DNA from: Pseudomonadota bacterium
Lineage (GTDB): Bacteria > Bdellovibrionota_C > UBA2361 > OMII01
NCBI GenBank assembly: GCA_046300175.1
Contig: JBKCMS010000067.1
Coordinates: 5,417 to 69,416 of the forward strand
Length of the DNA stretch: 64,000 bases
Direction of reading: 5' to 3'
Positions 13,029 through 40,924 of the stretch are shown piece after piece. Position numbers and translations under genes: made by a program. Position 1 is the stretch's first letter, and every line of letters begins with the position of its first letter. The notes below the pieces were generated by a model that saw only the letters and a program-made list of their open reading frames with translations, had not been told where the DNA came from and did not search any database.

Positions 13029-13682
13029 ATGAAAAGCGATAAGCAATTACAGCAGGATGTCATGGACGATTTGCGTTGGGATCCTAGTCTCGATGCATCG
13101 AAAGTCGGAGTATCAGCGACCAACGGAGTTATTACCCTTACCGGCTCAGTGCCCAGCTATTTCCAGAAGCAAAATACCGAGCGCGTGGTCAAAAGGGTCG
13201 CTGGAGTACGCGCCGTGGCAAATGATATAGAGGTGCGTCTTGCAAACACAACAGAGAGAAACGATTCAGACATAGCGCAAGCCGTTTTGAACGCCTTGAA
13301 GTGGGATACTTCAGTCCCCGAAGAGAACGTTGATATCTCTGTTTCTAAGGGATGGGTCACAATAGAAGGGAGTGTAGACTGGAACTATCAACGAGAGGCA
13401 TGTGAGAAAGCTGTTGAAAAACTAATTGGTGTCAAAGGGGTTACTAATCGTATTGGTGTAGCTCCACACGCGAAATCAAAAGACGTCAAAAACGAGATAA
13501 AAGCCGCGCTTCATAGGTATGCTGAGCTTGAATCAAGGAATATCGAGGTGGATTCAGCAGATAGCACTGTCACGCTCCGTGGGCAGGTTCGCTCATGGGC
13601 GGAGCGCAAGGAAGCAGAGACTGCCGCCTGGATGGCACCGGGAGTCACTCAAGTAAAAAATGAGATCATTGTCTCGGTATAG
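13029..13682 (+). CDS. BON-domain (OsmY-like) protein, three BON repeats
   Basis: The pattern GVITLTGSVPS...V..VAGV..V.N.I.V repeats three times. Confidence 0.85.
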   Translation: MKSDKQLQQDVMDDLRWDPSLDASKVGVSATNGVITLTGSVPSYFQKQNTERVVKRVAGVRAVANDIEVRLANTTERNDSDIAQAVLNALKWDTSVPEENVDISVSKGWVTIEGSVDWNYQREACEKAVEKLIGVKGVTNRIGVAPHAKSKDVKNEIKAALHRYAELESRNIEVDSADSTVTLRGQVRSWAERKEAETAAWMAPGVTQVKNEIIVSV

Positions 13683-15441
13683 AGTTAGCTTGGATCGATT
13701 GCCGCAGCGAGCTGAGCCATTCTCGCTTTGATTTTTGCAAGCGAGACAATCCACGAATACGGTTAGGGTTGAACCGCTGGACTCGAGATACCTCGACTAC
13801 TGTTCCATCTGAGCAGGAGTGTTCGGCGACAAAAAATACATCGGGACCAGCGGCCGATGTAGGTTTAACCCTGAAATCGGTCCTTCCAGAGTGTAGGGTG
13901 GTGAGGGCGGCTGGCACAAAAGTTGTCAGCACCTCACCACGATGCGCTCCGATTGATGTTGCTCCGCCCCGAATACTCACAGAACACTGCGGCGATAGTG
14001 ATGTAACCGTTGCACTGAAGGTAACACTTTTAGCATTAAGGCTTTTAGCGCTAAGTCCAAGTGTTACTGGTTTGCCGATGTGCGGATTAGCTGGAGAAGG
14101 TCCGCCTCCACGCGGAGTTGGAGTAGGGGAGACAATCCCTCGCGAAAATCCGCGACGGCACTCGGAATACCACGTATCTAAATAACCAGATATTTCTAAG
14201 AGACTAGCGCTGGAAAATGATTTTGGGGTGTTGTTACTGAGGCTGGGGCGCATGATGCCTGTATCGGTATGCGAGGCATTGAGGGTATGTCCGATTTCGT
14301 GAGCTGTAGTAACCGGGTCTAACGCACTAGAGACGTGTTGGACGATTGCGAGGGAGAATGGTGACCGGTCGTTTCTGCAGGTAGTGCCTACATAGGCGAT
14401 GCCGATAGTTTTCTCGTCCATAGTTCGGCCCGTGAAAAATTGCACGAGATCTATCTGGTTCGCCGCGGTGTGCGATCCGGTGTGAATGATCGAGAAACGA
14501 GGCTGCAGACTAAGCTGTTGAGCTACGTCTAGTAGGTCGCTTGGGTTAGTGGCATCGCCGATCGAAGTTGGTCCAAATTGACGGGCTACCGTGAAGGTAT
14601 AGCCAAGCTGGTTTTCATAAAAGACGGCAGCGCTGTGAATAGTCGATATTAATGCATCGTTGCACGCCGCGACTGATGAGCATCGAATACGGCTTGAGAA
14701 TTGTGCGTCAAAATCAGTAGCTATGTATAAAGTGGGGTAGGTGGTACGGCTAGCAAACGGCGAGTCCTTCAACAAAACATATGAATCTCCGCTAATGGTG
14801 TATTTTAATGGCGTACCACACTGCAAATTGGGAAGGGATGAGCGTGACACTACTCCTGTTCGTGAGTTCCGTCTAAAAGGCCGGCTGATATCTTGGAGCG
14901 CAACTCTAAGAGACGAGAGCCTGCCGGTGTCGACCTCTGCACTGCGACGAATATCCGGAGTAGTGATCAGCAAGCGATGGGGCACAGAGGAGCGTAGAAT
15001 AACAGCAGCCACCGGAAATGCCTTGTCGGTAACTCCATGTGGCCTTAGCCACCCGCGCAGTAGCACAGGGCCGTTGCGGCGCAGTGTAGCTGAATTTCCT
15101 GCAGGTAAGCCAGAATTTAGTGATGGCGGGTCGGCCAGCGGCGCAGCCACTTCGGCCGATGTGAGCATTATTCGCGAGCCCCGAGAGGTTTGACTTTTTA
15201 CCGAAAGGGCTATCGGCTCTATCTGTAGCTCACAACGAGGTGAGAAAGATACAGCGGCGGAAGTTAGAGGCGATCCGCACGGGGAGGCATCAGCTTCAGC
15301 AATGATGCGCTCTAGCTGCTTTCGTGAGCCGCGCACCCAACTATTTAGCTCATCAGAGTGTCCAGCAGTTGGCAGTGTTACCAGAGCGCATACTGCGAGG
15401 ATAACGCTATAGGCGCCATGTTTGAGACCAGCAATAGTCAT
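13666..15441 (-). CDS. secreted zinc metalloprotease, reprolysin/ADAM-like HExxHxxxxxH
   Basis: Signal peptide (VILAVCALVTLPTAGHS). Zincin motif TTAHEIGHTLNASHTD. Confidence 0.7.
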   Translation of the reverse strand: MTIAGLKHGAYSVILAVCALVTLPTAGHSDELNSWVRGSRKQLERIIAEADASPCGSPLTSAAVSFSPRCELQIEPIALSVKSQTSRGSRIMLTSAEVAAPLADPPSLNSGLPAGNSATLRRNGPVLLRGWLRPHGVTDKAFPVAAVILRSSVPHRLLITTPDIRRSAEVDTGRLSSLRVALQDISRPFRRNSRTGVVSRSSLPNLQCGTPLKYTISGDSYVLLKDSPFASRTTYPTLYIATDFDAQFSSRIRCSSVAACNDALISTIHSAAVFYENQLGYTFTVARQFGPTSIGDATNPSDLLDVAQQLSLQPRFSIIHTGSHTAANQIDLVQFFTGRTMDEKTIGIAYVGTTCRNDRSPFSLAIVQHVSSALDPVTTAHEIGHTLNASHTDTGIMRPSLSNNTPKSFSSASLLEISGYLDTWYSECRRGFSRGIVSPTPTPRGGGPSPANPHIGKPVTLGLSAKSLNAKSVTFSATVTSLSPQCSVSIRGGATSIGAHRGEVLTTFVPAALTTLHSGRTDFRVKPTSAAGPDVFFVAEHSCSDGTVVEVSRVQRFNPNRIRGLSRLQKSKREWLSSLRQSIQANSIPRQ

Positions 15442-15647
15442 AATGCAGAGAGATCCTACAACGACTTGGGCTTGTTGAGTAGAGCACTTAGCGCGGGAGC
15501 AGGGCGTCGCACTTCTCTCTTCTTAAAGGGGCCAAAAATCTGCGGAAGCTACTGGCACAATTAACTTAAACAGCATCTGCCCGCACGTTTTTATCCTTTT
15601 TGAAACTTCCAGCGTTCCTAAATAGATAGCGGGATAACTGCGATGCC

Positions 15648-16541
15648 CTAGCGCGGGAGGCGCTGTATGCCACCGATCTTGACGGTAGAGCGTGGACTAG
15701 TGCCGGCATCGAATAGCAGCGCGCTGCCGGGAACCCAGCCGCGAACGCCGTTGTTCGTGCGCACCCGGTACCAGGCGCCTGAGCGATAATCAATCAGGAC
15801 CTCAGTGTGCTGTGGTATCTTGAGTAATGTTGAATCTAGGCGTGTTGGGCCAGTCTTAAGGTATGTAGAGGCGTTGCGTATCGTGGCGAGTTCATCTGAG
15901 GTAAGTAGTGCTGGCCGCGCTGTCACAGCAGGGGTTAGGTCCTGGATCGGCACGGTTCGCGAGCGAGCTGCGTCGAATGTTGGCCTGCTAGAAGCTCCCG
16001 ATGGATTTAAGCGGTAGAACGACCCTAAGCGCTTTGCTGTTGTTCCATCAGGAGAATCGTCATAGGCCTTAGTTCTTACGCGATTAGAAGTTGCCAGTTG
16101 TGGCGCCTGAATTTTCTTAGGGGGCTCGAGGGCGGGATGCTTCTGTAGCTCCTGAAGAGCCTTGGGTTTAGTCACTTCAGTAGTAGAGGCCGTTTCGATC
16201 GAGGCGCTAGCCTGTTCTTCCGTTACAGGTGCTGATTCAGGAGCCTTGATTTCAAGCACCGTGATCGATCCTGCTGAAGAGCCTCCCTCTGATGGATTCA
16301 CTATTACCGTTGAAGCTTCCTGTTCCGTTGAGGCTGCTGGTGCCATTGGAACATCGGATGAGTCTAGATTCATGGAGCGCAGTAGCTCCTCTTCTTTTCT
16401 ACGAAGCTCCTGCTCGCGGGAGTCTATAGAGGTGTTATCCGCAGCTCCTTCATCGTTGGCTAGCGCCAAATTAGTAAAACCGCATACAAGGCAAATGGCA
16501 GCTGAAGAAAAGAGATGTGGTAGGCGCAGGTTGTAAGACAT
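15648..16541 (-). CDS. secreted protein with C-terminal bacterial SH3 domain
   Basis: Signal peptide (AAICLVCGFTNLALAND), low-complexity acidic/Ser-Thr linker, C-terminal GAWYRVRTNNGVRGWVPGSALL. Confidence 0.6.
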   Translation of the reverse strand: MSYNLRLPHLFSSAAICLVCGFTNLALANDEGAADNTSIDSREQELRRKEEELLRSMNLDSSDVPMAPAASTEQEASTVIVNPSEGGSSAGSITVLEIKAPESAPVTEEQASASIETASTTEVTKPKALQELQKHPALEPPKKIQAPQLATSNRVRTKAYDDSPDGTTAKRLGSFYRLNPSGASSRPTFDAARSRTVPIQDLTPAVTARPALLTSDELATIRNASTYLKTGPTRLDSTLLKIPQHTEVLIDYRSGAWYRVRTNNGVRGWVPGSALLFDAGTSPRSTVKIGGIQRLPR

Positions 16542-16860
16542 ACAAAACGTAGGTCAGAATTTAAAGTTTCTGTGACGGGTCAGTTGGCTTTTGCCAAGCA
16601 CGCTCCCGTAAGCAGCTAAAGAGTACGAGTGGCACGGCCCCCGAACACCTTAAAGAACCTAAGTACAAACCTAGGTAAAAACCTACGAATCAACAGGTCT
16701 TGATAGTGCTCCGTCTCCATAACTACCAAAGTGATGGCTAAAAACGAGCTAAGACCTTACCTACCATTGTAATCGGCTCAGTATACTTAATCAAACAGGG
16801 CCTCAGATTGAGAATCAGAGTAATCGCCAGAATAAAAGTGCTGTGATTTCAGATATATAT

Positions 16861-17080
16861 AGCGTTCCGTAAAAGTCTGTAGCGAAATCTCGACTTTTGG
16901 AGAACGCTATCGATTCGCGGATGCGAATCAAAACAACAACCTATAGTGATGTCCAGCAAAAGCCTTGCCAGTTTTACAGGCACGGACTTTTGCACATCAC
17001 TATAGGCGCAGCCTTATTCATTTTCGAAAAAATGCATGAGAATAGCTGGGCGAGTGCAATTTTGGCGTAGCTAAGTTGTC
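16861..17080. repeat. composite of three dispersed repeat modules (E, F, A) in tandem
   Basis: - E, 16861-16936: matches 44491-44570 in reverse complement.
- F, 16940-17006: hairpin cctatagtgatgt...acatcactatagg; matches 34621-34690.
- A, 17008-17080: hairpin plus gctgggcgagtgcaattttggcgtagc; matches 33258 and 41974. Confidence 0.8.
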
Positions 17081-17133: not shown

Positions 17134-19233
17134 CTACAGATCTTTGGAGCACGCCATAGCCGTTTCAAACCAAGCGACAACACCCTGGCCGAGCGCACGA
17201 TTGCGGACATTCTCCACTGCTTGTTGGTGGACATCTGATAGACCCGCTCCCATGAGCTCAATTGCTACAACTACCGGTTTTGAAGCCTTTGCCAGACGTA
17301 TTGCCCGCGCTACCGCGAGCCTACGCTGCTCAGAGCAGCTTAATAGAGCAGTCGGCATCCCTAAAGCTAGGTGTTGGAGATCTAGGGCCTCTGTGAGCTC
17401 AAGGGCCTGTCGCGCCTTGGCAAGTGCGGCGAGTATCTGGGAGGAATCCTTAATAGGTTGGTTTAAAATCGCAGAGAAAGCTACTCCACGAAACAGGGCG
17501 GAGTTTATCGGAGCGCTACAACGGGCACCACAACACACCGGGCAGGGATGAGCAAGAGGACGAGGAAGTTGGTCATAGTGGGTCAGGATCACACCGAGAC
17601 CACTACACTCCCTACACAAGTAACGCGGTGAGCGAGATGAAAACAAGGTGAAGTCCTTAAACGTTAGGCCGAGTGTGCGAGCATCCAGAGATGCAGCATA
17701 TAGCTGGGCCAGAGGTTCCAAAACGCCAAGCTCTTCACCCACCACGCGCGCCCTGCCGGAAAGCGGCAGAAAAAGCGGGATAGCTACAAGTTGGGCTGGT
17801 GATTTCATCGTAGCTAAGCCTGCTCGCAATTTGTTTGTTAGTTGGTTGAAAAATGATGGCGCCTCGGTATCAGGGCGGCATAGCTGTACTAGCTCGCCGG
17901 CATATATTCCGGTCAAGCGCGTACAGCTACCAGCGTCTGAGGATAGCTCTATTGGAGGGCTGAGTTCTTTTAGGCCTCTGGAACCAATCGCTGGAACGTG
18001 CTGGATTCGTGAGTTAAGCGGAGAGAATGTTTCTCCGATAACGATAACCGAACGGAAAGAAGCGATTTTTTGAGCGAGTTCCATCACCGCACGGCCCCGT
18101 GCGTCTGACATGAGACCACGAGGTAAATCAACAACGATAGTATCTTCTCGATGCTCAGCGGCTAGAAAACTTCTTATCAGTGATAAGCATGCTAGTTCCT
18201 GCGCGTCCAAGATATCAGTTCGCGAGCCCAGAGGCAGGCCGTCTAGGGAAATAGCGCCTAGCAGCGCCTGGGCCTGAGATAGGAGAGAGCCTTGATTTGC
18301 GCTTAGCATCCCTACGGGACGCATTAAGAGATCAGAAATGGTGTCCTTTCCGTTAAATACAAGCTGCGACTCTGCCGATCTGTCACGAGCGTTATCGAGC
18401 CCGCGTGTGAGCAGAGCTGATAGGGTCGCACGATAAACAGGTCCAGCGCCTATTTGGCACTTGTTACACCAGCCGTTAGGCGAATACGACAATGATTCGC
18501 CGCTCGCATCAGATACAGTGAAATAAATGTCGGGCACTCTCCAGGCTAAGTGTAGGAGTGTACTTATGGCAGCAATCGATGATTCCTGGCAAAGGAACCG
18601 GTCGATAAGTACTGTGTGAGCACCGGTCGAGCTGATAGTGGGTGTTAGGCCATGAAGCTGTGCCCATTCATTCAGGTTTAGAGAATAGGTTGAGGCATTG
18701 AGGGTAATCGTCTTTCCGCTCCAATGCTTTCGGACGCTATCAAGGAGAGAGATCGGCGATGTGTACCTAGTGAGTAGTGTACCACACTGATTACACTGGC
18801 AGCATGATGAATTTATAGCCGAATCGATAACTGAATCAATTAATCCACACGCAGCCAGTGCAGTAAGCGGTGTGTAGGCTAAGCGCTCCGGAGATGTATA
18901 CTGAGTTCTGGCTGCGAGAGTTCTAGTTAAACGTCCAGAAAGTGGCTCCGGTATGGCTCCCGCTTTTAGTGTTTCGATGAAGCGCTCCTGGGCAATCGAG
19001 TCAGCATAGAAACCGTCAATCCACTCTAGAGATCCTATATCGGCGCCTGCTATATGAACTCCCCGCGGCTCAAACGCGATCGAAAATGACACAACGCCTT
19101 CGGCACTCTGAGAGTAAGATTGATTAGATGCGCTGACTGCTGCGTCTAGTTGACCTCCATGCGCAGCATGTCGGAAAAATCGGGCAGCTGAAAAGACCTC
19201 TCCAGAGATTCGCCGTATGCTTGGCTCAGCCAT
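17134..19233 (-). CDS. UvrA-like protein with degenerate ABC ATPase motifs
   Basis: By eye it is colinear with UvrA. Cys clusters are kept: CCQCNQCG, WCNKCQ, CRECSGLG...CPVCCG. The ATPase motifs are altered:
- Walker A positions read IAGADIGSL and LTGIYAGEL.
- Signature motifs read LDAQELAC and LSCSEQRR.
- Walker B reads VVDLP and AIELM. Confidence 0.7.
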   Translation of the reverse strand: MAEPSIRRISGEVFSAARFFRHAAHGGQLDAAVSASNQSYSQSAEGVVSFSIAFEPRGVHIAGADIGSLEWIDGFYADSIAQERFIETLKAGAIPEPLSGRLTRTLAARTQYTSPERLAYTPLTALAACGLIDSVIDSAINSSCCQCNQCGTLLTRYTSPISLLDSVRKHWSGKTITLNASTYSLNLNEWAQLHGLTPTISSTGAHTVLIDRFLCQESSIAAISTLLHLAWRVPDIYFTVSDASGESLSYSPNGWCNKCQIGAGPVYRATLSALLTRGLDNARDRSAESQLVFNGKDTISDLLMRPVGMLSANQGSLLSQAQALLGAISLDGLPLGSRTDILDAQELACLSLIRSFLAAEHREDTIVVDLPRGLMSDARGRAVMELAQKIASFRSVIVIGETFSPLNSRIQHVPAIGSRGLKELSPPIELSSDAGSCTRLTGIYAGELVQLCRPDTEAPSFFNQLTNKLRAGLATMKSPAQLVAIPLFLPLSGRARVVGEELGVLEPLAQLYAASLDARTLGLTFKDFTLFSSRSPRYLCRECSGLGVILTHYDQLPRPLAHPCPVCCGARCSAPINSALFRGVAFSAILNQPIKDSSQILAALAKARQALELTEALDLQHLALGMPTALLSCSEQRRLAVARAIRLAKASKPVVVAIELMGAGLSDVHQQAVENVRNRALGQGVVAWFETAMACSKDL

Positions 19234-19284: not shown

Positions 19285-20673
19285 TTATGCAGCCGCGCTG
19301 AGAGAGGATTTAATCGTCTCTATTCGGTCGATCACCATTTTCTTATAGCTCTCAAGCAGCTCAGCAGATTCGGCCTCAAATCGCATTACAAGCACCGGCT
19401 GCGTATTAGATGCGCGAACAAGCCCCCAGCCTCTGTCAAAAGTAACCCTAACACCATCGATGGTATCAACCTTAAACTCCTTGAAGGCCTCTTGTGCTGC
19501 TGTTGCGATCTTAAACTTGATCGCCTCTGGGCAATCTACCCGCATCTCTGGGGTCGAAAGCATTGGTTTGAGTCCAGACAGTAGGCTTGAAAGCGCGCCG
19601 CTGTGTTTGCTCATAATTTCCACCAGTCGAGCCGAGGAGTAGAGTGCGTCGTCGAAACCGAAGTACCTGTGCTTGAAAAAGATGTGCCCGCTCATTTCAC
19701 CAGCCAGGTCACCATGGGTCTCTTTGAGCTTGCTTTTGATCAGAGAATGACCCGTCTTCCACATGATTGCCTTGGCCCCACGAGCGTTAAGGTCATCAAA
19801 AAGCTGACTAGAGCACTTAACATCCCCAATGATCGTTGCTCCTGGTTTCTCAGCTAGAATAGCGCGGCCATAAATCAACAATAGCATATCACCAAATACA
19901 GGCTCACCGCGCTCATCAACTACGCCGATGCGATCAGCATCACCGTCCCATCCGATACCAAAGTCGGCTCCGTGTGTCTTAACCGCAGCCACCAGGTCTT
20001 TTATGTTCTTGAGCTCAGTTGGATCCGGATGGTGGTTTGGAAATCGCCCATCTGGATCGCAGAACAGCTCAATTACCTCAACGCCGAGCGCTTTCAACAC
20101 CGCCGGACCAACGAGCCCTCCAACACCGTTTCCGGCGTCTACTACAACCTTAAGTTTCCGTGAGCCTATATGAGGCTTAGAGTTGTCAATAATTGAAGAA
20201 ATATATGACTCTCGAACAGCAAGCTGCGATATAGTTCCACGTTTGCCAGTAGGGGCGCTTTGCAACACTCGCTCGCAGCGTGCCTTAAGGTCTTGTATCT
20301 CCGCTCCGGATAAGGTCTGTTTGCCGAGAAGAATCTTAAATCCGTTCATATCTGGCGGGTTGTGACTGCCAGTGACCTGAATTCCCCCTCCGAGTTCGTT
20401 AGAAAAAACAGCGAAGTAAAGTTGCGGTGTAGGTCCCATGCCGGTGAGCACTACGTCTAGCCCCTCATCGGCTAGTCCTTCAGCCAAGGCTTGCGCATAT
20501 CCTGGAGAGCTTAGGCGGCAGTCGTGCCCGACTCCGATACGGTTTAGGCCGTGCTCCTTGGCAAGAGTGCCGTAGGCGCGTCCCAGCAGCCGAGCGAACT
20601 CATCACTAAGTTCACTACCTACCGTCCCACGGATATCATATTCCCTAAAAATTACCGGATTAACTTTCATCAT
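19285..20673 (-). CDS. phosphomannomutase/phosphoglucomutase
   Basis: Phosphoserine loop GIQVTGSHNPPDMNGFK, metal loop GWDGDADRIGVVD, and GEMSGH. Confidence 0.9.
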   Translation of the reverse strand: MMKVNPVIFREYDIRGTVGSELSDEFARLLGRAYGTLAKEHGLNRIGVGHDCRLSSPGYAQALAEGLADEGLDVVLTGMGPTPQLYFAVFSNELGGGIQVTGSHNPPDMNGFKILLGKQTLSGAEIQDLKARCERVLQSAPTGKRGTISQLAVRESYISSIIDNSKPHIGSRKLKVVVDAGNGVGGLVGPAVLKALGVEVIELFCDPDGRFPNHHPDPTELKNIKDLVAAVKTHGADFGIGWDGDADRIGVVDERGEPVFGDMLLLIYGRAILAEKPGATIIGDVKCSSQLFDDLNARGAKAIMWKTGHSLIKSKLKETHGDLAGEMSGHIFFKHRYFGFDDALYSSARLVEIMSKHSGALSSLLSGLKPMLSTPEMRVDCPEAIKFKIATAAQEAFKEFKVDTIDGVRVTFDRGWGLVRASNTQPVLVMRFEAESAELLESYKKMVIDRIETIKSSLSAAA

Positions 20674-20674
20674 A

Positions 20675-21781
20675 TTAATATTTCTTGTCGACTATATGGT
20701 TTTTTTGTAGCTCCGCACCGAAATACGATGAGAGTTTCTCCTCAGTTTTACGTTTCTGGATGGTCTTTCGGGCTTCATCGCGGCGCGCCTTTAACTGTGC
20801 CTCGCTCTCTGTGCCGTTATCATCCTCTTTGTCCTCTTGATTCTCTTCGCCCTCTTCGTCGTCCTCTGCCCCAAGGCGCTCCTCAACAAAGAATATCTGC
20901 GTAACCCCTTCTGTTACTACAGGTTTACTATATTTTCCAGCCTCTAGTGAGCGGACAGCCTCAAGTATGTGGCCACTTAGGTCTTTAACTGCGACCATCC
21001 CTAGTAGCCCGCCCTCTGCCCTGTTAGGGTTATCAGAGAACTCTTGTGCAGCAGATTCAAAACTTTTGCCAGCGGCCAGGGCTTGTTCCACCGCTTGCAC
21101 CTTTGCAGAGATTTCGTCATTTGAGCGGCCAGCGTGTGCAATGCTTATCGAGCGTAGCTTCACCGAGGCTCCACCACTTGAGAGACTCGGGTTTGATGAA
21201 ACATACTCGTCGACCTCCTGCTCTGAGACGCTTACACCACCTTTTGCTATGGAGGAGGCTAACTTGGTTTTGAGAATCTCACTTCTGACCTGACGTCGAT
21301 ACCAGGCTACGCTCTTTCCCTCGCGTTTAAGAACACCCTCGAAGTCGGGCCTTGATAGAGAGTTTCGAGCTGCCACCTCATTGATGTATTCCTCAATCTC
21401 AGCGTCATCGACCGACACCCTCTTTAAGGAAGCCTCGGCTTCTAAGATACGCTCAAAGATTATAGTTTCCAGGGTTTGCTGGGCTTCCTGGTCCGTTGCT
21501 ATCTCTTTAAGAGAGAGTTTTCTAGGTGTTGATAATCGCGAGGTAAGCTCAGAGAGGGTAATCGGCTTTTCGTCCACCGAGGCTACTACGGCATCGATTA
21601 CAAACTCGCTCACAGGAGCAGGCGCTTGGCTCTTAGGAGCGGCGCTCAAAGGGGTATAGAGGACCGGGAAGGTTGCAAGTACCGCTATTGATGAGGCCAG
21701 AAGCGTTCGCCGAGGTGTAGGGGAGGTCTGACCCTGCGGGACAGTCTGTTTGAGCACGAAAGATATAAGCGGCATAATCAT
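20675..21781 (-). CDS. SurA/PrsA-like periplasmic peptidyl-prolyl isomerase (parvulin domain) with acidic tail
   Basis: Signal peptide, SurA-N-like helical region, parvulin segment AQEFSDNPNRAEGGLLG, C-terminal EDDEEGEENQEDKEDD. Confidence 0.75.
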   Translation of the reverse strand: MIMPLISFVLKQTVPQGQTSPTPRRTLLASSIAVLATFPVLYTPLSAAPKSQAPAPVSEFVIDAVVASVDEKPITLSELTSRLSTPRKLSLKEIATDQEAQQTLETIIFERILEAEASLKRVSVDDAEIEEYINEVAARNSLSRPDFEGVLKREGKSVAWYRRQVRSEILKTKLASSIAKGGVSVSEQEVDEYVSSNPSLSSGGASVKLRSISIAHAGRSNDEISAKVQAVEQALAAGKSFESAAQEFSDNPNRAEGGLLGMVAVKDLSGHILEAVRSLEAGKYSKPVVTEGVTQIFFVEERLGAEDDEEGEENQEDKEDDNGTESEAQLKARRDEARKTIQKRKTEEKLSSYFGAELQKNHIVDKKY

Positions 21782-21896
21782 ATTAGGAAACCCGTTCTCA
21801 GTAAGCTAGCTAAGTCTTGTAGGTTTCACAACACCAACTTATAGTGGGCCCCAACAAGTGTCGTTCGCGCCTAGAAACCGATTCAATAGGATTTCC

Positions 21897-22766
21897 ATGA
21901 AAAGCTCGGATCATTCCCTGGCTAAGTCATTAATCTGCAGTGTAGTGCTGTGTGGTGTAAGTGCCTTTTTAGGTGGCTGCGGTGGGGGTGGTGATAGCTC
22001 GGATGGGTCGTCTGGAGGCGGGTCAGCATGCAATTCGATCGGTTATGCAGCAGCGCTGAAAGTAGCCAATGGAGAGCAGTGTGTGGCAGACAGCGAAAGC
22101 GACACCTCATCTGTTGTGAAGCTGCGAATAGAGACTAGGGACGGCTCGATTGGCACCTGCACAGGCACGGTCATCTCAACGACGGCAGTATTGACGGCAG
22201 GGCATTGCTTTGCTTACTCCGACTGGTCACGAGTAATTATCACAGCAGTGTCAGCGGGAAGAAAAGTTGATGTTCAGTCAACTAGTGTAGTCGTGCATCC
22301 AAACTTCAGAGCGTCGCTTTCAGAGGGGTTGTTTTTTAATGACGCAGCAATTGTAAAGGTGGGTTCGGCGCTCCCTGTTCCTCCGCTACCACTCTTGGTT
22401 TCTCGTGCCCCTCAGGTGGGTGAGGATTCAACGGTTGCTGGATACGGGCAGACCGAAAATGGAGGTGCAGCTGTGGATGATGTTGTCGCTGGGCAGGCGG
22501 TGATTCGTTCAGTGACCGATAATCACCTGCGAATCGATTATCGTGATGGCGAGAGCCATCCATGCAAAGGGGATTCCGGAGGTGCGCTATTAGTGCAGCA
22601 GGGAGAGGGCTTGGCCATAGCGGGAGTAGTCTCGCAGAGTGATCCGAGCGTAACGGCTGACCAGATATGTGAGCAGGGTGAAGACAAGACGCTTTACACG
22701 AATACTCAGCAGGCCTCAGTTTCCAATTTTATCTTGGCGCAAGCCCGCGGTGCAGCGACAAAGTAA
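21897..22766 (+). CDS. trypsin-like (S1) serine protease lipoprotein
   Basis: Lipobox FLGGC followed by a Gly/Ser linker. His LTAGHCF, Ser CKGDSGGAL. The ATG at 21897 has AGGA upstream; the ORF track starts at an upstream GTG (21858). Confidence 0.8.
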   Translation: MKSSDHSLAKSLICSVVLCGVSAFLGGCGGGGDSSDGSSGGGSACNSIGYAAALKVANGEQCVADSESDTSSVVKLRIETRDGSIGTCTGTVISTTAVLTAGHCFAYSDWSRVIITAVSAGRKVDVQSTSVVVHPNFRASLSEGLFFNDAAIVKVGSALPVPPLPLLVSRAPQVGEDSTVAGYGQTENGGAAVDDVVAGQAVIRSVTDNHLRIDYRDGESHPCKGDSGGALLVQQGEGLAIAGVVSQSDPSVTADQICEQGEDKTLYTNTQQASVSNFILAQARGAATK

Positions 22767-29377: not shown

Positions 29378-30913
29378 TTACTTTATTTTTTTAAAATCAC
29401 CGGGTTTCCAGCTTCTCTTAATCGCTGCCTCAGTCGGCCCGTAAAGCCTCAGCACGGCGAAGTAACCCTTACCAGGTACCGTCGCCAACCAATTCGAGTG
29501 TTTGCCCTCGAATACCTGAGGGCCAAAATAGAGATCGGTGCTGCCGTCGTCATTTTGCACAGGATTGTCTCTCGAGCCAAGCGATGGAAACGGCTGGCCA
29601 TTAGCAAGTCCCGATGCGTTTTCGGCCTCATAAAGTGTTACTGACCAGAAATTAGCAGCGGGGATATTAGCTGGTAGATTTAAACGATAGTTAACTCCTC
29701 CAGACAGGGGCGTGCCGTCTCCATCAGTAAATGCGATCATATAAGCCGCACCTTTACCGGGTATCTTCGAGAGCATCCCAGGACTGACCGAGTAATAATT
29801 AGTAAAAAACCAGATGCGGGCATCGAGGTCGAGGTATCCTCCCGAAAGATTCTTCCAGGAGAGATCCAAAGCCTTGTGTGGTCCTGGTGGCGTTATGTTA
29901 TCGAGGGGATTTATCCAACGACGATCCTGATAAACCCTGAGCGATCCCTGGTTCAGGACCTCCTCGAAACCAATGACGCGGCTCATCTTGTATGCCGTCT
30001 TGGCGGCCCGATCAAGGATCTCTCGAGTCCGCGCATCGGGCTTGAAAGGCTGGCCCTTTATGATGCCGATCGCCGCTAACATCCCGAGTGAATCCGACTC
30101 TGCCAGGTTGTTTCCTTCCGAGTCCACGAGATCCTTGAGTTGATCAAACGCACGTCCATCAGCGGTTGGCAACATATTCACTGGCACCCCTGAGGCATCG
30201 GGAAATACCATCGGTTTGGCGGTGGCTTCACCTTTTAAAGGATAGATCTTTGCTTGCTCAATTAGCGCAACCGCCGGCCTCAAATTCTTAGGATCCTGAT
30301 AGAAGCCCCGGAGAAAGATAAATACGTTGTTAGTTCCAGAACGGTAGACGAAGTATCCTTGAGGAACGTCTCCCGCATATCCGGGTGGCAGGATGAGAAA
30401 TTTGCCACCCTTGCCGGCATCTGGACCTGTTAGGCCAACATCACCTTGGAATTTGCCACCATCGACAGGTATGGGACGTTGCCAAAAATCGAGCAAGATA
30501 CCTTGCAACATAGGAGGCGCCTCAAACACCAGCGGACCATCCTTTCCGAGGTCAACATAGCTCATCGCGTAGATCACATCAGAGTTTGGTGTAGTAACTA
30601 GAGTCTTTGCATCGAGTCTCTTCTTCCAAATCGGCAGCACGTTGTATCCAGCGCCGAAAGTGCTCTCTGAACCGGTCTTCATGCCGAGCGTGTTGATTAG
30701 GGGTAGCGCCCAGAGATAGGTTTGAGTCGCGCGCTGAAACAGCAATTCGTCGCGTAATATCTGGGCGACTTCATTTCCAGGTCGATTCTCTGTGAATGAG
30801 GCGTTTGCCAATTCATCAAAGCGCGAAGTTTGTGCTTTAGCCTCGGAGGCTATTATAGCGCAGGCAATCGCGGTAATAACAAGCGCGTAATTTCGGAGTG
30901 TTAGTGATGACAT
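29378..30913 (-). CDS. secreted DUF1254/DUF1214-type protein
   Basis: Signal peptide, QRATQTYLWALPLIN (DUF1254-like). C-terminal ANFWSVTLYE...YFAVLRLYGP (DUF1214-like). Confidence 0.75.
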   Translation of the reverse strand: MSSLTLRNYALVITAIACAIIASEAKAQTSRFDELANASFTENRPGNEVAQILRDELLFQRATQTYLWALPLINTLGMKTGSESTFGAGYNVLPIWKKRLDAKTLVTTPNSDVIYAMSYVDLGKDGPLVFEAPPMLQGILLDFWQRPIPVDGGKFQGDVGLTGPDAGKGGKFLILPPGYAGDVPQGYFVYRSGTNNVFIFLRGFYQDPKNLRPAVALIEQAKIYPLKGEATAKPMVFPDASGVPVNMLPTADGRAFDQLKDLVDSEGNNLAESDSLGMLAAIGIIKGQPFKPDARTREILDRAAKTAYKMSRVIGFEEVLNQGSLRVYQDRRWINPLDNITPPGPHKALDLSWKNLSGGYLDLDARIWFFTNYYSVSPGMLSKIPGKGAAYMIAFTDGDGTPLSGGVNYRLNLPANIPAANFWSVTLYEAENASGLANGQPFPSLGSRDNPVQNDDGSTDLYFGPQVFEGKHSNWLATVPGKGYFAVLRLYGPTEAAIKRSWKPGDFKKIK

Positions 30914-30961
30914 AGAAGCTTCAAAAAATTGACAGATACGCGTTGTTAGACACTGTGCAGA

Positions 30962-37270: not shown

Positions 37271-40200
37271 TTAGGCTCTGAATGATATCCGCGCTAAAGT
37301 CGATTCGGTTAGCGAATAAACCTGACCAAGAGTAGTCTCCTTACGCTTATCAAATATTATTGTAAATGTATTGCTTCGGCCGAATTGGAATAGTTGTGGT
37401 TCGCGCTGCACTAGCTCCAAAGCACGTAAACCATCGACTCGAGTGTTATGCGTTGGCTTATGTCCATCTCTGAGAAGGGCTATTGGACTAAAACTGAAGG
37501 CAGCTTTAGCAGGCGTGACATCAGCTTTAACTATACCATGTCGCCTCAGAAGGCTACGATAGCGCATGATAACGAGGAGATTATCAACCTCATCACCGTA
37601 GGGACCGAATCGATCTTCTAATTCACTCTGAATATCAAATGCCTCATCATCAGATCGCAGATTGGATAGTCGCTGATACAGTACAAGCCTCTCACCTATA
37701 TCAGGTACATATGTCTCGGGGATAAAAGCGTCGACACCAACGATACGAATCTCAGGGTCGATTGTGTCCTCAAGGAGGGGCTCATTGCCTCTTAGATCGG
37801 CGACTGCCTCTTGTAGAATCCGGCAGTACATGTCAAAGCCAACCGACAGCACGCTCCCAGATTGCTCTTTGCCTAGCAGGTTCCCAGCTCCACGTATCTC
37901 CAGGTCGCGAATTGCTAAATTAAAGCCGGCACCTAAAGTGTCAAGTGATTGCAGGACCTTCAGGCGCTCATGGGCCTCGCCGGTAAGCGACCGTAGGTGA
38001 GGCACTATTAGGTATGCGTAAGCTTGACGCTTGCCTCGACCTACACGACCCCGCAACTGATAAAGCTGAGCCAGTCCGAACTGGTCAGCGCGATCAATTA
38101 TCATCGTATTTGCATTTGGCACATCGAGGCCTGACTCAATAATTGTGGTCGAGATCAAAACGTCGAATTCACGATCAACAAAACGTTTCATGATCCTCTC
38201 AAGAGTTGCCTCAGGCATTTGTCCGTGAGCGAATTCAAAGCGCGCCTCGGGTACTAGCTCGGCTAGATGCGCAGCCACAACGCCGATATTTTGCACCCTG
38301 TTATGAATATAAAACGCCTGGCCGCCGCGTCGAATCTCTCTCAGGATCGCATCGCGCACCAAGGCATCGTCCCGCTCTGCTACGTAAGTTTGAACAACAC
38401 GCCGATCAACAGGGGCTGTCTGAATCAGGCTAATATCGCGGATATCTAAGAGCGACATGTGCAGTGTGCGAGGGATCGGCGTTGCGGTTAGGGTCAGAAC
38501 ATCAACATTAGCTCTGTATGACCGCAGACGCTCCTTCTGCTTAACTCCGAAACGGTGCTCTTCATCTATAATTAGAAGACCCAGATCCTTAAATGTGACA
38601 TCGTGTTGCAATAAACGATGAGTTCCTATTACGATATCTATGTCGCCTGCAGCTACAGCTTGAAGTGTCTGTTCATTTTCGCCAGTCGAGTAAAAACGAC
38701 TGATTGCCCCGACCTTAACCGGATAACCAGCAAATCGTTCTTCAAAATTCTTTTTATGCTGCTCGACTAGAATGGTGGTCGGCACGAGAAGAGCCACCTG
38801 CCTAGCATGCTGGGTGCATTTAAAAGCGGCGCGGATAGCCACTTCGGTTTTACCGAAGCCTACGTCGCCACAGACTAGGCGGTCCATCGGTTTGTCAGCA
38901 GCCATATCATTGATGGTTTCTTCGATCGCTTTGCGCTGATCGGGGGTCTCATCGTAGGGAAATGCGTCAGAAAAGCGTTCGTCCTCAGCGCCGTAGGGTT
39001 CAAATCGCCATCCCTTGCTGACTGAACGCGAAGCGTAAAGGCGGATGAGGTCACCAGCTAAGGTGACAATCGAATCTCTCACCTTCTGTTTAGTGCGTGC
39101 CCATCGAGTTGAGCTGAGCTTGTCGACTACTGGAGCCTGGCCCTCTGCTCCGACAAATTTTTGGATCTTACCGATCTGATGTGCCGGTAGGTACAGGGTA
39201 CTATCGGCGTACTCGATGTGCAGGAAATCCCCTAAAACACCGTCAACAGTGAGGTGTTTGAGTCCCTTGTAAACGCCCACCCCATAGTCGATATGAACCA
39301 GATAGTCTCCGTCTTTAAGGAGAGAGAGTGTGCTCAATATACGCTTAGCACTAACTCGTGGAGCTTTACCGGATCGATAGGAGCGCTCTCCAAAGACCTC
39401 ATTTTCCGCCAAAAAGCATAGCTTGTCGCTTGGTATTCGAAAGCCTGATGTGATGTGGCCAACGATTATTGCAACCGCCGATCGTCGAGGTGAATCAATC
39501 CAGCCCATGCCGCAGGCGGTTACAATCGGCGCATCAGTGCCCAGATCCAGAAGAATTGATTGAAGTCGCTGGGCGCGTGAGAGGGAGCCAACCGTGAGAG
39601 CAACAGAGAAATCTTTTTTACGCCATTGATTTAAAAATGCCTTCAACGGAGCGAATGCCGAGCCTGAGCCAATCTGAGTGCGCATCTGAGTGGCTAGCTC
39701 AGTAACGCTTTCAGCTCGAAGGTTAATTAGTGTTCTAGGGCTTGACGCCGGCGAATCGGGCCCAGCGATAGAGGAAATCTCACAGCGAGTTCTGACAGAT
39801 AACTCACGGACCACGGTGTCGTGGTCGAGATATATCTCATCTGCTAGAGGCAATAGGTGCTGGTCTTCTAGTAAGCGCAGGGCGCGCTCACGGGCTGTGT
39901 GAGAGAATTCATCTATCGCACGCTGGCACTGGTACGAATCGATCGTGCAGATCGGTACATTGCTCGGCACTACATCGAGAATGCCAGGAAGGTGCGGGTG
40001 AGCAATAAATTGAATCAGTTCAATGCCCGGATAGTCCTCTCGCTGCTGCATAGCCAGTACTACCTTCTCTACTATGCGGGCGTGAGTTCCGGTTTGAGTT
40101 GCACGCTCCTTGATTCGGTGTGCGGAATTGATTGGATCATATACCTCTGTCAGACACAGGGATAGCTCACGCACCGGGAGAATGGTGATAGATTCCTTAT

Positions 40201-40858
40201 CTGACAAGCTGCGTTGTGATTCAGGATCAAAGCTTCGCATGCGGACTATAGTCTCGTTGAGTAGCTCGATGCGTATCGGCATCTGCTCCGCACTTGGAAA
40301 TAGATCGATCACCGCACCCTTTACAGACATCTCGCCCACTTCTTCTACTGACTTGGCATGGCGAAAGCCAGCGTCAAGAAGCCGAGAGATGAACTGCTCT
40401 CTGCCGATTAAATCGCCGAGTTTTGTCACGATACTGAGGGCACGAATGTCTTGGGGCGGGATAATCCGCTGCAGAAGCGTTTCCGCAGCTGCTACTACGA
40501 TACCAGTGTTAGAGCAAGTTAGAGTGTGCAGCGCTCGTATGCGCTCCGCTGACGTGTCTACCCCTGGGGATACCGGTTCTAGAGGCAGGGTATCCCAACT
40601 TGGGAGAAAGGTGACTGAGTCATTACCCAAGAAAAACCTAAGGTCGTCGCATACCTCTTCAGCAACTTTTCTGGATGGAGTTACGATAAGAGCTTTGGGT
40701 GCATCTCGGAGGATTGTTGAGATGTAATAGGATGCGGCAGAGCCGGGTACCCCGATCACTCTCTGAGGATTGAGCATGGCGGCGGCTTGTAGGTCAGTCG
40801 ACTCAGGTGGAGAAAGGTGCATGTCAGAATCTACGATAGGACAGCTATGGTAGGCCAC
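37271..40858 (-). CDS. mfd: transcription-repair coupling factor
   Basis: 1195 aa. Has a UvrB-homology N-terminus, a CarD-like RNAP-interacting domain (GDYLVHIDYGVGVYKG), helicase motifs GDVGFGKTEVA and IIDEEHRFG, and QLYQLRGRVGRG. Confidence 0.95.
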   Translation of the reverse strand: MAYHSCPIVDSDMHLSPPESTDLQAAAMLNPQRVIGVPGSAASYYISTILRDAPKALIVTPSRKVAEEVCDDLRFFLGNDSVTFLPSWDTLPLEPVSPGVDTSAERIRALHTLTCSNTGIVVAAAETLLQRIIPPQDIRALSIVTKLGDLIGREQFISRLLDAGFRHAKSVEEVGEMSVKGAVIDLFPSAEQMPIRIELLNETIVRMRSFDPESQRSLSDKESITILPVRELSLCLTEVYDPINSAHRIKERATQTGTHARIVEKVVLAMQQREDYPGIELIQFIAHPHLPGILDVVPSNVPICTIDSYQCQRAIDEFSHTARERALRLLEDQHLLPLADEIYLDHDTVVRELSVRTRCEISSIAGPDSPASSPRTLINLRAESVTELATQMRTQIGSGSAFAPLKAFLNQWRKKDFSVALTVGSLSRAQRLQSILLDLGTDAPIVTACGMGWIDSPRRSAVAIIVGHITSGFRIPSDKLCFLAENEVFGERSYRSGKAPRVSAKRILSTLSLLKDGDYLVHIDYGVGVYKGLKHLTVDGVLGDFLHIEYADSTLYLPAHQIGKIQKFVGAEGQAPVVDKLSSTRWARTKQKVRDSIVTLAGDLIRLYASRSVSKGWRFEPYGAEDERFSDAFPYDETPDQRKAIEETINDMAADKPMDRLVCGDVGFGKTEVAIRAAFKCTQHARQVALLVPTTILVEQHKKNFEERFAGYPVKVGAISRFYSTGENEQTLQAVAAGDIDIVIGTHRLLQHDVTFKDLGLLIIDEEHRFGVKQKERLRSYRANVDVLTLTATPIPRTLHMSLLDIRDISLIQTAPVDRRVVQTYVAERDDALVRDAILREIRRGGQAFYIHNRVQNIGVVAAHLAELVPEARFEFAHGQMPEATLERIMKRFVDREFDVLISTTIIESGLDVPNANTMIIDRADQFGLAQLYQLRGRVGRGKRQAYAYLIVPHLRSLTGEAHERLKVLQSLDTLGAGFNLAIRDLEIRGAGNLLGKEQSGSVLSVGFDMYCRILQEAVADLRGNEPLLEDTIDPEIRIVGVDAFIPETYVPDIGERLVLYQRLSNLRSDDEAFDIQSELEDRFGPYGDEVDNLLVIMRYRSLLRRHGIVKADVTPAKAAFSFSPIALLRDGHKPTHNTRVDGLRALELVQREPQLFQFGRSNTFTIIFDKRKETTLGQVYSLTESTLARISFRA

Positions 40859-40924
40859 ATCGCTTCGAAGTAAACCAGTTTAGGGAAGCGAGGCAAGCAG
40901 CCCATTAATCCCTTTTATCTTACG

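Follow-up and report, generated by a model that had tools for sequence, protein, structure and literature searches.

The window analysed here, a 64,000-nucleotide stretch of a bacterial contig, encodes on its minus strand a 699-residue protein that is homologous to UvrA along its whole length and shares the UvrA fold, that has lost the UvrA ATPase motifs throughout a family held under purifying selection, and that occupies a genomic position where other lineages carry uvrA itself. An earlier note on this DNA, made from the sequence by eye, had described a UvrA that kept its zinc modules and lost every ATPase motif; it had also called the reading frame long and uninterrupted, as indeed it is.

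17134..19233, minus strand: coding sequence of the UvrA-derived pseudo-ATPase, 699 aa and stop codon (ORF list and translation)

The start codon is backed by N-termini common to the orthologues of the 699-aa ORF. We class the product as a pseudo-ATPase derived from UvrA on the basis of homology, clade-wide loss of catalytic residues and purifying selection. On balance we lean towards a fuller reading, in which this pseudo-ATPase most likely descends from the resident uvrA of a conserved mfd-surA-pgm-uvrA cluster and would act as an ATP-independent, zinc-stabilised scaffold.

The colinearity with UvrA that had been noticed by eye was confirmed over the whole length by profile-profile alignment (hhalign probability 99.95%, E 2e-37, 658 columns), and the match was repeated with E. 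coli UvrA. When the family profile was run against the PDB, UvrA chains were the only strong matches (E 2.5e-33 to 7e-23); generic ABC ATPases came next, none of them stronger than E 3e-5. A template-free AF2 model computed from family sequences only (pLDDT 89.7, pTM 0.88) was searched with Foldseek; the 38 best PDB matches were all UvrA (E 3e-23 to 2e-13, TMq up to 0.61), and ABCE1 and DppD appeared at E 6e-7 and weaker, a likeness to ABC proteins by structure only. Profile search and Foldseek, two of the checks proposed in the earlier note, each returned UvrA with significance. Searches with one sequence against Pfam, NCBIfam and, by phmmer, the PDB cover aa ~500-660 only. It took the 37-sequence family profile to reveal the whole-length homology; a profile of three sequences brought no gain over a single one, and AF2 run with three sequences only gave a pLDDT of 46.6. 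The protein misses the curated cutoffs for UvrA (TIGR00630, 47.7 bits vs 729.8; NF001503, 39.8 vs 1147), and none of the 37 family members matches PF00005 (ABC_tran) or the UvrA-specific Pfam domains at E <= 0.01. We conclude from whole-length colinear homology and the UvrA fold that the 699-aa protein is UvrA-derived.

The alignment divides the protein into the following parts, several of which are remnants of UvrA domains.

18796..19233, minus strand: N-terminal part of degenerate nucleotide-binding domain I, aa 1-146, aligned to UvrA 3-119
18457..18795, minus strand: zinc module 1 and UvrB-binding-domain-like fold, aa 147-259 (alignment, invariant Cys)
18154..18456, minus strand: signature-domain-I remnant, aa 260-360, including LDAQE at nt 18196-18210
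17746..18018, minus strand: N part of degenerate nucleotide-binding domain II, aa 406-496, P-loop deleted
17284..17745, minus strand: signature domain II and zinc finger 3, aa 497-650, including LSCSE at nt 17329-17343

The cysteine clusters reported before are all present (CCQCNQCG, aa 144-151; WCNKCQ, aa 255-260; CRECSGLG...CPVCCGARC, aa 540-572). C147, C150, C256, C259, C540, C543, C564 and C567 show no variation among 37 family members, the last four belonging to zinc finger 3 (nt 17533-17616). Retention of the zinc modules thus holds for modules 1 and 3, whose eight cysteines these are, but not for module 2, which is deleted. The insertion domain was correctly noted as missing: together with zinc module 2 (E. 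coli ~265-415) it has no counterpart, the deletion falling between aa ~263 and ~290. The UvrB-binding domain, thought to be missing as well, is there; UvrA 120-256 (E. coli numbering) aligns to aa 147-259, a segment that is framed by the two CxxC pairs of zinc module 1 and is modelled. In Foldseek, full-length UvrA structures scored a TMq of 0.60-0.61 vs 0.42 for d117-399 UvrA. The signature-II/zinc-finger-3 region is the most conserved of the family and has a net charge of +5.5 vs +0.5 in UvrA, and the N part of nucleotide-binding domain II is the least conserved segment (column identity 0.21-0.33), with the lowest model confidence. Of the E. coli UvrA DNA-binding arginines only R722 is kept, R712, R724 and R730 being replaced by Ala, Leu and Asp. 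Residues R216 and E222, which define the UvrB/Mfd contact of E. coli UvrA (PMC3025350), correspond to A222 and H228 in the window protein; in the family, Arg is found at the first position in 41% and Arg or His at the second. With the UvrB/Mfd contact pair and three of the four DNA-binding arginines replaced, both canonical interfaces may therefore be gone.

The surroundings of the gene resemble those of uvrA in other lineages.

19285..20673, minus strand: phosphoglucomutase/phosphomannomutase gene (pgm), directly upstream of the target gene across a 51-nt spacer (Pfam and NCBIfam matches)
20675..21781, minus strand, co-oriented: SurA-like peptidyl-prolyl isomerase gene, a conserved upstream neighbour in relatives
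37271..40858, minus strand, same strand as the target: mfd, transcription-repair coupling factor (TIGR00580, 999.9 bits)
16940..17006, minus strand: terminator-like hairpin followed by a U-rich tract, 128-194 nt past the target stop codon (inverted repeat)

As stated in the earlier note, the pgm stop codon lies 51 nt upstream of the 699-aa ORF, and the surA-like gene, pgm and the target are co-oriented. In the window mfd is found 18 kb upstream of the target gene; in relatives L086 and L092 the order mfd-surA-pgm-target is contiguous, and pgm directly precedes the family gene in 10 of 11 contexts. In L004 and L007 (both Binatota), as well as in L014 (Oligoflexia) and L069 (a deltaproteobacterial MAG), this cluster continues after pgm with an intact uvrA. 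Since intact uvrA fills the same mfd-surA-pgm slot, the target is best read as the positional orthologue of uvrA, a point absent from the earlier note and added by this analysis. Even the closest genomes that carry an intact uvrA in this slot are far removed, with pgm ~50% identical among the matches listed. In a neighbour-joining (NJ) tree the family sits on a long branch that leaves its attachment among the UvrA classes open, so it is synteny that carries the orthology.

Apart from mfd, the neighbours of the target are not DNA-repair genes, which counts against the scaffold reading. One might ask whether the protein has left DNA altogether, serving for example as a protein- or metabolite-binding partner in a surA-pgm operon (envelope, sugar-nucleotide supply) that reuses only a stable zinc fold. 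Co-transcription with pgm is likely, since the spacer is short and the terminator-like hairpin comes only past the gene (RNA fold -39.9 kcal/mol, z -6.0, with 0 of 200 shuffles as stable); a scan for promoter and terminator consensus gave background level only. A conserved gene for a small membrane protein lies directly downstream of the target in five subclades, the evolutionary rate of the target is like that of secreted neighbours, and the loss of most canonical DNA-binding arginines also fits a non-DNA role. However, ordinary uvrA shows the same pgm linkage in other phyla, so the linkage is no sign of a new function, and the most constrained part of the protein is the domain that provides the DNA-binding surface of UvrA, with its net positive charge. 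We regard such a role as unlikely. A defence-system reading is without support, as PADLOC gave no match for the target protein or three of its neighbours.

Somewhat less probable again, in our estimate, is a repair modulator or adaptor that engages UvrB or Mfd and competes with or replaces canonical UvrA, without damage verification of its own. The UvrB-binding-domain fold is retained between the invariant cysteines of zinc module 1, the gene shares its cluster with mfd, and Mfd keeps its UvrB-homology module, in which R181 is kept and R165 is Lys. Domain D2 of Mfd is 38% identical to E. coli D2 here and 39% in a lineage with intact uvrA; its triad is K/R/L, and the pattern of domain conservation is like that of lineages with intact uvrA. 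Against this, the E. coli contact residues are not conserved on the UvrA side, the clade is variable at Mfd F185 (L, S, D), and linkage to mfd is also seen with ordinary uvrA, so that it may be plain inherited gene order.

Loss of the ATPase motifs was traced column by column.

19027..19053, minus strand: former Walker A of site I, IAGADIGSL, aa 61-69 (column table)
18121..18132, minus strand: Walker B remnant of site I, VDLP, aa 368-371 (column table)
17251..17262, minus strand: Walker B remnant of site II, IELM, aa 658-661 (column table)

In the profile-profile alignment, IAGADIGSL stands opposite the Walker A motif GLSGSGKSS, LDAQE (aa 342-346) and LSCSE (aa 631-635) align to the two LSGGE signatures, and VDLP and IELM to the two L-D-E-P Walker B motifs, all as the earlier note had proposed. 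Its assignment for the second Walker A was right about the loss of the P-loop and wrong about the counterpart, which is not LTGIYAGEL (aa 440-448) but LCRPDTE (aa 451-457), followed by a 5-residue deletion opposite G-K-S-T-L. The Walker A columns of site I, with G, S, G, G and K at 100% in UvrA, are variable in the family, without a conserved Gly or Lys. At the site-I Walker B the catalytic Glu (100% in UvrA) has become Leu or Ile; the site-II Walker B is altered in all members and has disappeared altogether from the window protein; and the entire family is without the distal H-loop His, which stands at 100% in UvrA. Neither GxxxxGK[ST] nor LSGG[EQ] was found in any of ~60 family members, whereas the UvrA matches from the same search all carry at least two Walker A motifs and most carry LSGG[EQ]. 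Alignment revealed no intact GxxGxGK[ST] or LSGGQ/E, motifs whose presence the earlier note had named as contrary to its claim; motifs that are intact but misaligned were rejected on the profile-profile column table and the motif scan of ~60 members.

Some features of the sites could be taken to mean that nucleotide is still bound or hydrolysed through non-canonical residues, in a site of ABC type that is unusual and yet active. In site I, 92% of the family retain the Walker B Asp, with Pro at 100% two residues on, Glu occupies the Asp position of the site-II Walker B in 95%, and a Ser-Leu pair is conserved across the family at the end of former P-loop I. We nevertheless hold an active site to be very improbable: site I has neither a Gly-rich loop nor the Lys; site II has physically lost a stretch of five residues that contains G-K-S; no member retains either signature, the catalytic Glu of the proximal site or the H-loop His of the distal one; and the core of nucleotide-binding domain II is the least conserved segment.

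The family comprises at least 37 full-length, intact orthologues (658-741 aa, 23-46% identity) and ~60 relatives in all. A survey of the orthologues, as suggested in the earlier note, showed that the substituted motif positions are lost family-wide while the eight Cys ligands, together with several Gly, Pro and Arg residues, are invariant. Frameshifts or stops in orthologues, which the note had said would indicate a plain pseudogene, were not what we saw; at least 37 ORFs are intact. With dS saturated between the window gene and its relatives, dN/dS was taken from the closest pair, L002/L088. The value of 0.21 (0.05 for pgm) agrees with the earlier view of a gene that is maintained and not decaying, and by domain it ranged in this pair from 0.09 (signature II/zinc finger 3, the lowest) to 0.34 (N-terminal part of nucleotide-binding domain I). 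The target is at the same time the fastest-evolving gene of the syntenic block: its dN between the window and L001 is 0.58 vs 0.06 for pgm, and identity among relatives is 28-43% for the target, 81-90% for pgm and 65-86% for Mfd. Such fast evolution is equally compatible with a housekeeping role, loose constraint or an arms race. A decaying uvrA that is still open by chance, as the loss of every catalytic motif and the high dN might suggest, has a negligible probability and is effectively refuted by the intact full-length ORFs across lineages at low identity, the invariant residues, the low dN/dS overall and in the zinc-finger-3 domain, the conserved N-terminus and start codon, and the confident fold obtained from a family-only MSA.

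Relatives were recovered by several routes. A word-indexed protein search found two; the same kind of search with the family profile was swamped by ordinary UvrA. A metagenome scan with the C-terminal sub-alignment gave one additional locus, and one family member lies in NCBI MAG GCA_041442895.1. Peptide patterns of the family, specific to the three closest sequences, had no match in GTDB genomes, where the best pgm identity among the matches listed was ~50%, in many phyla. Selection has preserved the target in one uncultured lineage.

We compared the protein with the known kinds of UvrA. Class I UvrA (TIGR00630 / NF001503; PDB 2R6F, 3PIH, 3UWX), the canonical NER damage sensor, shares with the target whole-length colinear homology, the fold, zinc module 1 with the UvrB-binding-domain fold, the zinc finger 3 pattern C-x2-C-x-G-x-G ... 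C-x2-C-x-G-x-R-[FY] and, in Binatota, Oligoflexia and the deltaproteobacterial MAG, the slot after mfd-surA-pgm. Unlike class I UvrA, the target has no Walker A, LSGGE, proximal catalytic Glu or distal H-loop His, lacks the insertion domain and zinc module 2, is ~240 residues shorter, and differs at the residues that contact UvrB and at three of the four DNA-binding arginines. Class II UvrA, represented by D. radiodurans UvrA2, DrrC and Ecm16 (PDB 2VF7, 7SH1), resembles it as a shortened UvrA relative that is not known in standard NER and is among the best sequence and structure matches. The domain pattern is the reverse, however: class II lacks the UvrB-binding domain and has the insertion domain, and it keeps both ATPase sites where the target has neither. 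Ecm16 is reported to need ATPase activity for its function (PMC9328131). Class II identity was rejected on the opposite domain pattern and the absence of ATPase motifs. Short UvrA-like matches from a representative search (P0085, P0123, P0128, P0135, P0147) each have two Walker A motifs.

The UvrA proteins of L014 (an uncultured Oligoflexia) and L069 occupy the same position and are already without the insertion domain, as in the target; the UvrB-binding domain is kept in L014, and the stretch is masked in L069. Unlike the target, both retain the zinc module 2 cysteines, both Walker A motifs and both LSGGE signatures. They group with ordinary UvrA in the NJ tree, which does not resolve a specific sister relationship to the target family; they could represent an intermediate state. 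Loss of catalytic motifs with retention of the fold under purifying selection is a pattern the target shares with pseudoenzymes generally.

Binding and hydrolysis of ATP are held to drive both the discrimination of damage and the loading of UvrB by UvrA. With the ATPase motifs lost, this ATP-driven cycle is not expected to run in the target. What the protein retains is the UvrA fold, zinc module 1 and the UvrB-binding-domain fold it encloses, and, towards the C-terminus, the signature domain that carries zinc finger 3. It has shed the insertion domain, zinc module 2, the Walker A loops, both signature motifs, the catalytic Glu of the proximal site and the H-loop of the distal one. In the scaffold reading that we favour, what is left would be an ATP-independent binding scaffold stabilised by zinc. 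The signature-II/zinc-finger-3 region, strongly constrained and positively charged, would do the main work, most plausibly by binding nucleic acid, and the former UvrB-binding domain may provide a second, rapidly evolving contact surface. The suggestion of a DNA- or zinc-dependent binding protein made in the earlier note is, judged from sequence, plausible. Such a protein could have arisen by replacement of uvrA in the lineage or from an in-situ copy freed after duplication.

It is doubtful, though to be taken seriously, that the target is the sole UvrA orthologue of the lineage, turned ATP-independent in a genome that has no canonical uvrA at another site. In that case UvrA-dependent NER would have been abandoned while Mfd was kept, or else the scaffold would be useful without nucleotide cycling, for example by offering Mfd or UvrB a platform that binds DNA or lesions constitutively; an ATP-independent function hidden in the UvrA architecture would then be exposed. 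The absence of a second uvrA from these genomes would also raise the question of how, and whether, excision and transcription-coupled repair happen there.

In agreement with the earlier note, we found no description of an ATPase-dead UvrA in the literature on degenerate or pseudo-enzyme UvrA, as a dedicated family in Pfam or NCBIfam, or in PADLOC. To our knowledge, every characterised UvrA class (canonical, class II resistance, duplicated) depends on two ATPase sites, and no earlier UvrA-derived pseudo-ATPase is known to us; on that background and on these searches, the target would be the first of its kind. A clade without either ATPase site, at the uvrA position beside mfd, amounts to a natural separation-of-function experiment and may reveal which abilities of the UvrA scaffold and its C-terminal zinc finger do not depend on nucleotide cycling.

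The proteins of this family are currently labelled either 'hypothetical' or 'ABC-type ... ATPase subunit', and the second of these labels is wrong.

The 699-aa UvrA-like protein is encoded on the minus strand, downstream of a surA-like gene and a phosphoglucomutase/phosphomannomutase gene (pgm). ORF call and translation bear out the ORF at 17134-19233 described in the earlier note, and every motif string quoted there was found at the residues given; the strand is corrected to minus, the plus-strand frame across this interval containing many stops.

20675-21781, minus strand: SurA-like PPIase gene, preceding pgm and co-oriented with it and the UvrA-like gene
19285-20673, minus strand: pgm, 51-nt spacer to the UvrA-like gene downstream
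17134-19233, minus strand: UvrA-like gene, ATG start, 699 aa
16940-17006, minus strand: terminator-like hairpin (-39.9 kcal/mol, z -6) followed by UUGUUGUUUU, 128-194 nt past the stop codon
37271-40858, same strand as the UvrA-like gene: mfd, parted from the surA-like/pgm/UvrA-like run by extra genes in the window

The 590-nt spacer 3' of the UvrA-like gene holds two inverted repeats, 16859-16910 (19-nt arms, 84% complementary) and 16940-17006; the latter, with its U-tract, looks like a terminator. The UvrA-like gene is likely co-transcribed with pgm, the transcript being ended by this strong hairpin and U-tract.

Single-sequence searches detected the C-terminal quarter alone: Pfam gave no match, NCBIfam UvrA models matched only aa 503-653 (47.7 bits; cutoff, 729.8), and phmmer against PDB matched UvrA chains across aa ~501-659 only. 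Searching the representatives exhaustively with a profile of three sequences gave 59 clusters whose representatives scored E ≤ 1e-30, the majority 658-741 aa long and matching end to end; ranked after these were ordinary UvrA proteins, mostly duplicated, which matched profile positions ~480-670 only. We aligned 37 full-length family members (23-46% identical to the window protein) and compared them by hhalign with a profile of 34 UvrA units, to which E. coli UvrA was added later. The match was significant over the whole length (probability 99.95%, E = 2e-37, 658-664 columns), with window aa 23/41-699 colinear with UvrA 3/9-890. Against PDB, strong matches of the family profile were to UvrA chains only (E = 2.5e-33 to 7e-23), generic ABC ATPases coming next at E = 3e-5 or weaker. 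An AlphaFold2 model built from the family alignment alone, without templates (pLDDT 89.7, pTM 0.88), predicts a UvrA fold: its best 38 Foldseek matches in PDB are UvrA (E = 3e-23 to 2e-13), with ABCE1 and other ABC proteins following at E ≥ 6e-7. The colinearity previously seen by eye is therefore correct, and UvrA ancestry is near-certain.

The former nucleotide-binding sites, I and II, were compared in a per-column table of family versus UvrA, with E. coli numbering mapped by alignment.

Motifs of the two former nucleotide-binding sites in UvrA, the window protein and the family
Walker A, site I: UvrA G-x-S-G-S-G-K-S-S (G, S, G, G, K 100%); window IAGADIGSL; family variable, without conserved Gly/Lys
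Signature I: UvrA LSGGE; window LDAQE; family L-[SD]-x-x-[ED]
Walker B, site I: UvrA L-D-E-P; window V-D-L-P; family D 92%, P 100%, catalytic Glu always hydrophobic
Walker A, site II: UvrA GxSGSGKST; window LCRPDTE plus a five-residue gap; family with G-K-S-T-L deleted
Signature II: UvrA LSGGE; window LSCSE; family L-S-x-S-E
Walker B, site II: UvrA L-D-E-P; window I-E-L-M; family E 95% at the Asp position
H-loop, site II: UvrA His 100%; window absent; family lost

The table and a regular-expression check agree with the earlier claim that the ATP-binding and hydrolysis motifs are replaced: GxxxxGK[ST] and LSGG[EQ] were found in no family member, nor did the alignment place an intact GxxGxGK[ST] or LSGGQ/E in any. 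The second Walker A is indeed lost, although its proposed counterpart, LTGIYAGEL, lies about ten residues off, which leaves the absence of the P-loop unaffected. Walker A matched twice or more in every UvrA hit of the same result list, and LSGG[EQ] matched in most of them. Pfam ABC_tran and the UvrA-specific Pfam domains were reached by none of the 37 members. The window protein thus has no nucleotide-binding motifs, and it has almost certainly lost ATPase function.

Eight cysteines are invariant in the family and stand at the predicted ligand positions of two UvrA zinc modules, C147, C150, C256 and C259 in zinc module 1 and C540, C543, C564 and C567 in zinc finger 3; G545, G547, G569 and R571 around the latter are also invariant, as in the UvrA pattern. 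The reported retention of cysteine clusters thus holds for modules 1 and 3, while zinc module 2 is missing together with the insertion domain (E. coli ~265-415). The UvrB-binding domain, also thought to be missing, is in place: aa 147-259, between the module 1 CxxC pairs, align with it (E. coli 120-256) and are modelled at pLDDT ~95, and the model has a TM-score of 0.60-0.61 against full-length B. stearothermophilus UvrA, just 0.42 against T. maritima UvrA d117-399. In E. coli UvrA, R216 and E222 are the UvrB/Mfd contact pair, and R712, R722, R724 and R730 are DNA-binding arginines (PMC3025350). The window protein has Ala for R216 and His for E222 (in the family, Arg in 41% at the former position, Arg or His at the latter) and Ala, Leu and Asp for R712, R724 and R730, R722 alone being kept; the retained parts have only some of their functional residues. 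Even so, the signature-II region is the more positively charged, at +5.5 versus +0.5 in UvrA.

Across family-bearing loci, flanking genes are close to those of the window and the UvrA-like protein is divergent (identity to the window proteins: pgm 81-90%, Mfd 65-86%, BON-domain protein 93-95%, UvrA-like protein 28-43%). The UvrA-like gene has a dN of 0.58 between the window and locus L001, against 0.06 for pgm. Almost every pair is saturated at synonymous sites; only loci L002 and L088 could be used, and they give dN/dS of 0.034/0.73 = 0.05 for pgm and 0.277/1.33 = 0.21 for the UvrA-like gene, divided into 0.34 (N-terminus), ~0.2 (middle) and 0.09 (signature-II/zinc finger 3). Together with dozens of intact ORFs, these ratios exclude a pseudogene, in line with the earlier impression of a gene maintained rather than decaying; they also show that most of the molecule is constrained much more weakly than a working UvrA would be. 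Purifying selection is concentrated on the signature-II/zinc-finger-3 domain, and the least conserved segment of the family is the former NBD-II core.

In 10 of 11 contexts (the window, L001, L002, L084, L086, L088, the contig of search hit P0010, L090/L091, L092 and L093), pgm lies directly upstream of the family gene; L085 is the exception. Loci L086 and L092 have the close-packed order pilT (divergent), mfd, surA-like, pgm, family gene, and the pilT/mfd neighbourhood is conserved, distant lineage members included. The pilT-family ATPase gene is divergent from mfd at 37271-41947 in the window, L086:1925-6739 and L092:867-5630. We inspected 80 GTDB loci, collected through pgm, for mfd and uvrA. 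A co-oriented mfd lies upstream in four of them, L004, L007 (Binatota), L014 (uncultured Oligoflexia) and L069 (deltaproteobacterial MAG). Precisely these four have an ordinary uvrA, with Walker A and LSGGE intact, beginning right after pgm (in L004 only the first ~220 residues, including the first Walker A, are on the locus). Two of these genes lack the ~120-aa insertion domain and keep the ATPase motifs:

L014:5309-7821, uvrA of the uncultured Oligoflexia MAG
L069:11346-13759, uvrA of the deltaproteobacterial MAG

Both retain the zinc module 2 cysteines, with the two CxxC pairs only ~8-15 residues apart, and may represent an intermediate state; in each record, parts of uvrA are masked by runs of N. 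In a neighbour-joining tree the family forms one long-branched clade without a firm attachment point, so that orthology rests on synteny, not phylogeny. The most economical view is that this pseudo-ATPase descends in situ from uvrA as its positional orthologue, which extends the largely supported interpretation of the earlier note.

On balance we lean slightly towards an account of the window protein as a UvrA-derived pseudo-ATPase scaffold. It would be static, holding its ligand by the conserved, positively charged C-terminal domain, the counterpart of UvrA's DNA-binding surface; the UvrB-binding-domain fold may provide a second, fast-evolving surface, and ATP-dependent damage verification and UvrB loading would be beyond it. 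Nucleic-acid binding as the mechanism, taken by itself, we consider less likely than not. The linkage to mfd would also suit a protein that acts on UvrB or Mfd as adaptor or competitor, but the residues that contact these proteins are not conserved, and domain D2 of Mfd does not tip the balance. Another alternative is a role without relation to DNA, inside the surA-pgm operon. Class II UvrA (UvrA2/DrrC/Ecm16 type) is rejected: there the insertion domain is present, the UvrB-binding domain is absent and ATPase activity is required (PMC9328131), the opposite domain pattern to that of the window protein, in which ATPase motifs are absent.

The window protein descends from UvrA and would work along similar lines, but it falls outside class I: it lacks the ATPase sites, zinc module 2 and the insertion domain, and scores far under the curated cutoff. 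It fits the general pseudoenzyme concept. Family members are named "hypothetical protein" or generic "ABC-type ... ATPase subunit" in databases, and no description of an ATPase-dead UvrA was found in the literature searched. We class the family as a clade of UvrA-derived pseudo-ATPases, of relevance to the DNA-repair field. A normal uvrA may exist elsewhere in the genome. The host range is narrow and uncultured. Narrow patterns found no family member in GTDB representatives, where the closest pgm among the matches listed was ~50% identical and matches were scattered across many phyla, and one member is carried by NCBI MAG GCA_041442895.1. All family loci have 50-55% G+C, and no rRNA or other Rfam family was found in the 64-kb window. 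Two unusually short UvrA-like proteins from the representative search, P0110 (649 aa) and P0112 (721 aa), keep both Walker A motifs at a spacing of just ~390-445 residues, where ~590-610 is canonical. These minimal forms of UvrA are apparently ATPase-competent and do not belong to the pseudo-ATPase family.

In five subclades a small conserved protein of 105-130 aa is encoded directly downstream of the UvrA-like gene (L085:3973-4326, L086:11538-11879, L090:2392-2727, L092:10466-10783, L093:5929-6321). It has one predicted hydrophobic helix, the motifs QKGEAE and LPESYGEL, 42-62% identity between loci and no Pfam family; in the window and its closest relatives it is absent, and SH3-domain and reprolysin-like genes are found instead. 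The window is rich in proteases that are apparently secreted (13666-16541, 21858-22766 and 58425-60407): a metalloprotease of reprolysin type beside an SH3-domain protein, a serine protease resembling trypsin, and one of subtilisin/mycosin type. The first two of these are fast-evolving (50-68% identity between relatives versus 86-90% for pgm). ORFs of 843, 511, 490 and 975 aa (23850-26381, 29378-32434, 46834-49761) had no NCBIfam match, and the 843-aa ORF none in Pfam or PADLOC either. A gene for a penicillin-binding protein of PBP1C type (50020-52308, TIGR02073) comes directly after a 1933-aa ORF (52324-58125), a layout typical of the bacterial alpha-2-macroglobulin/PBP1C pair.
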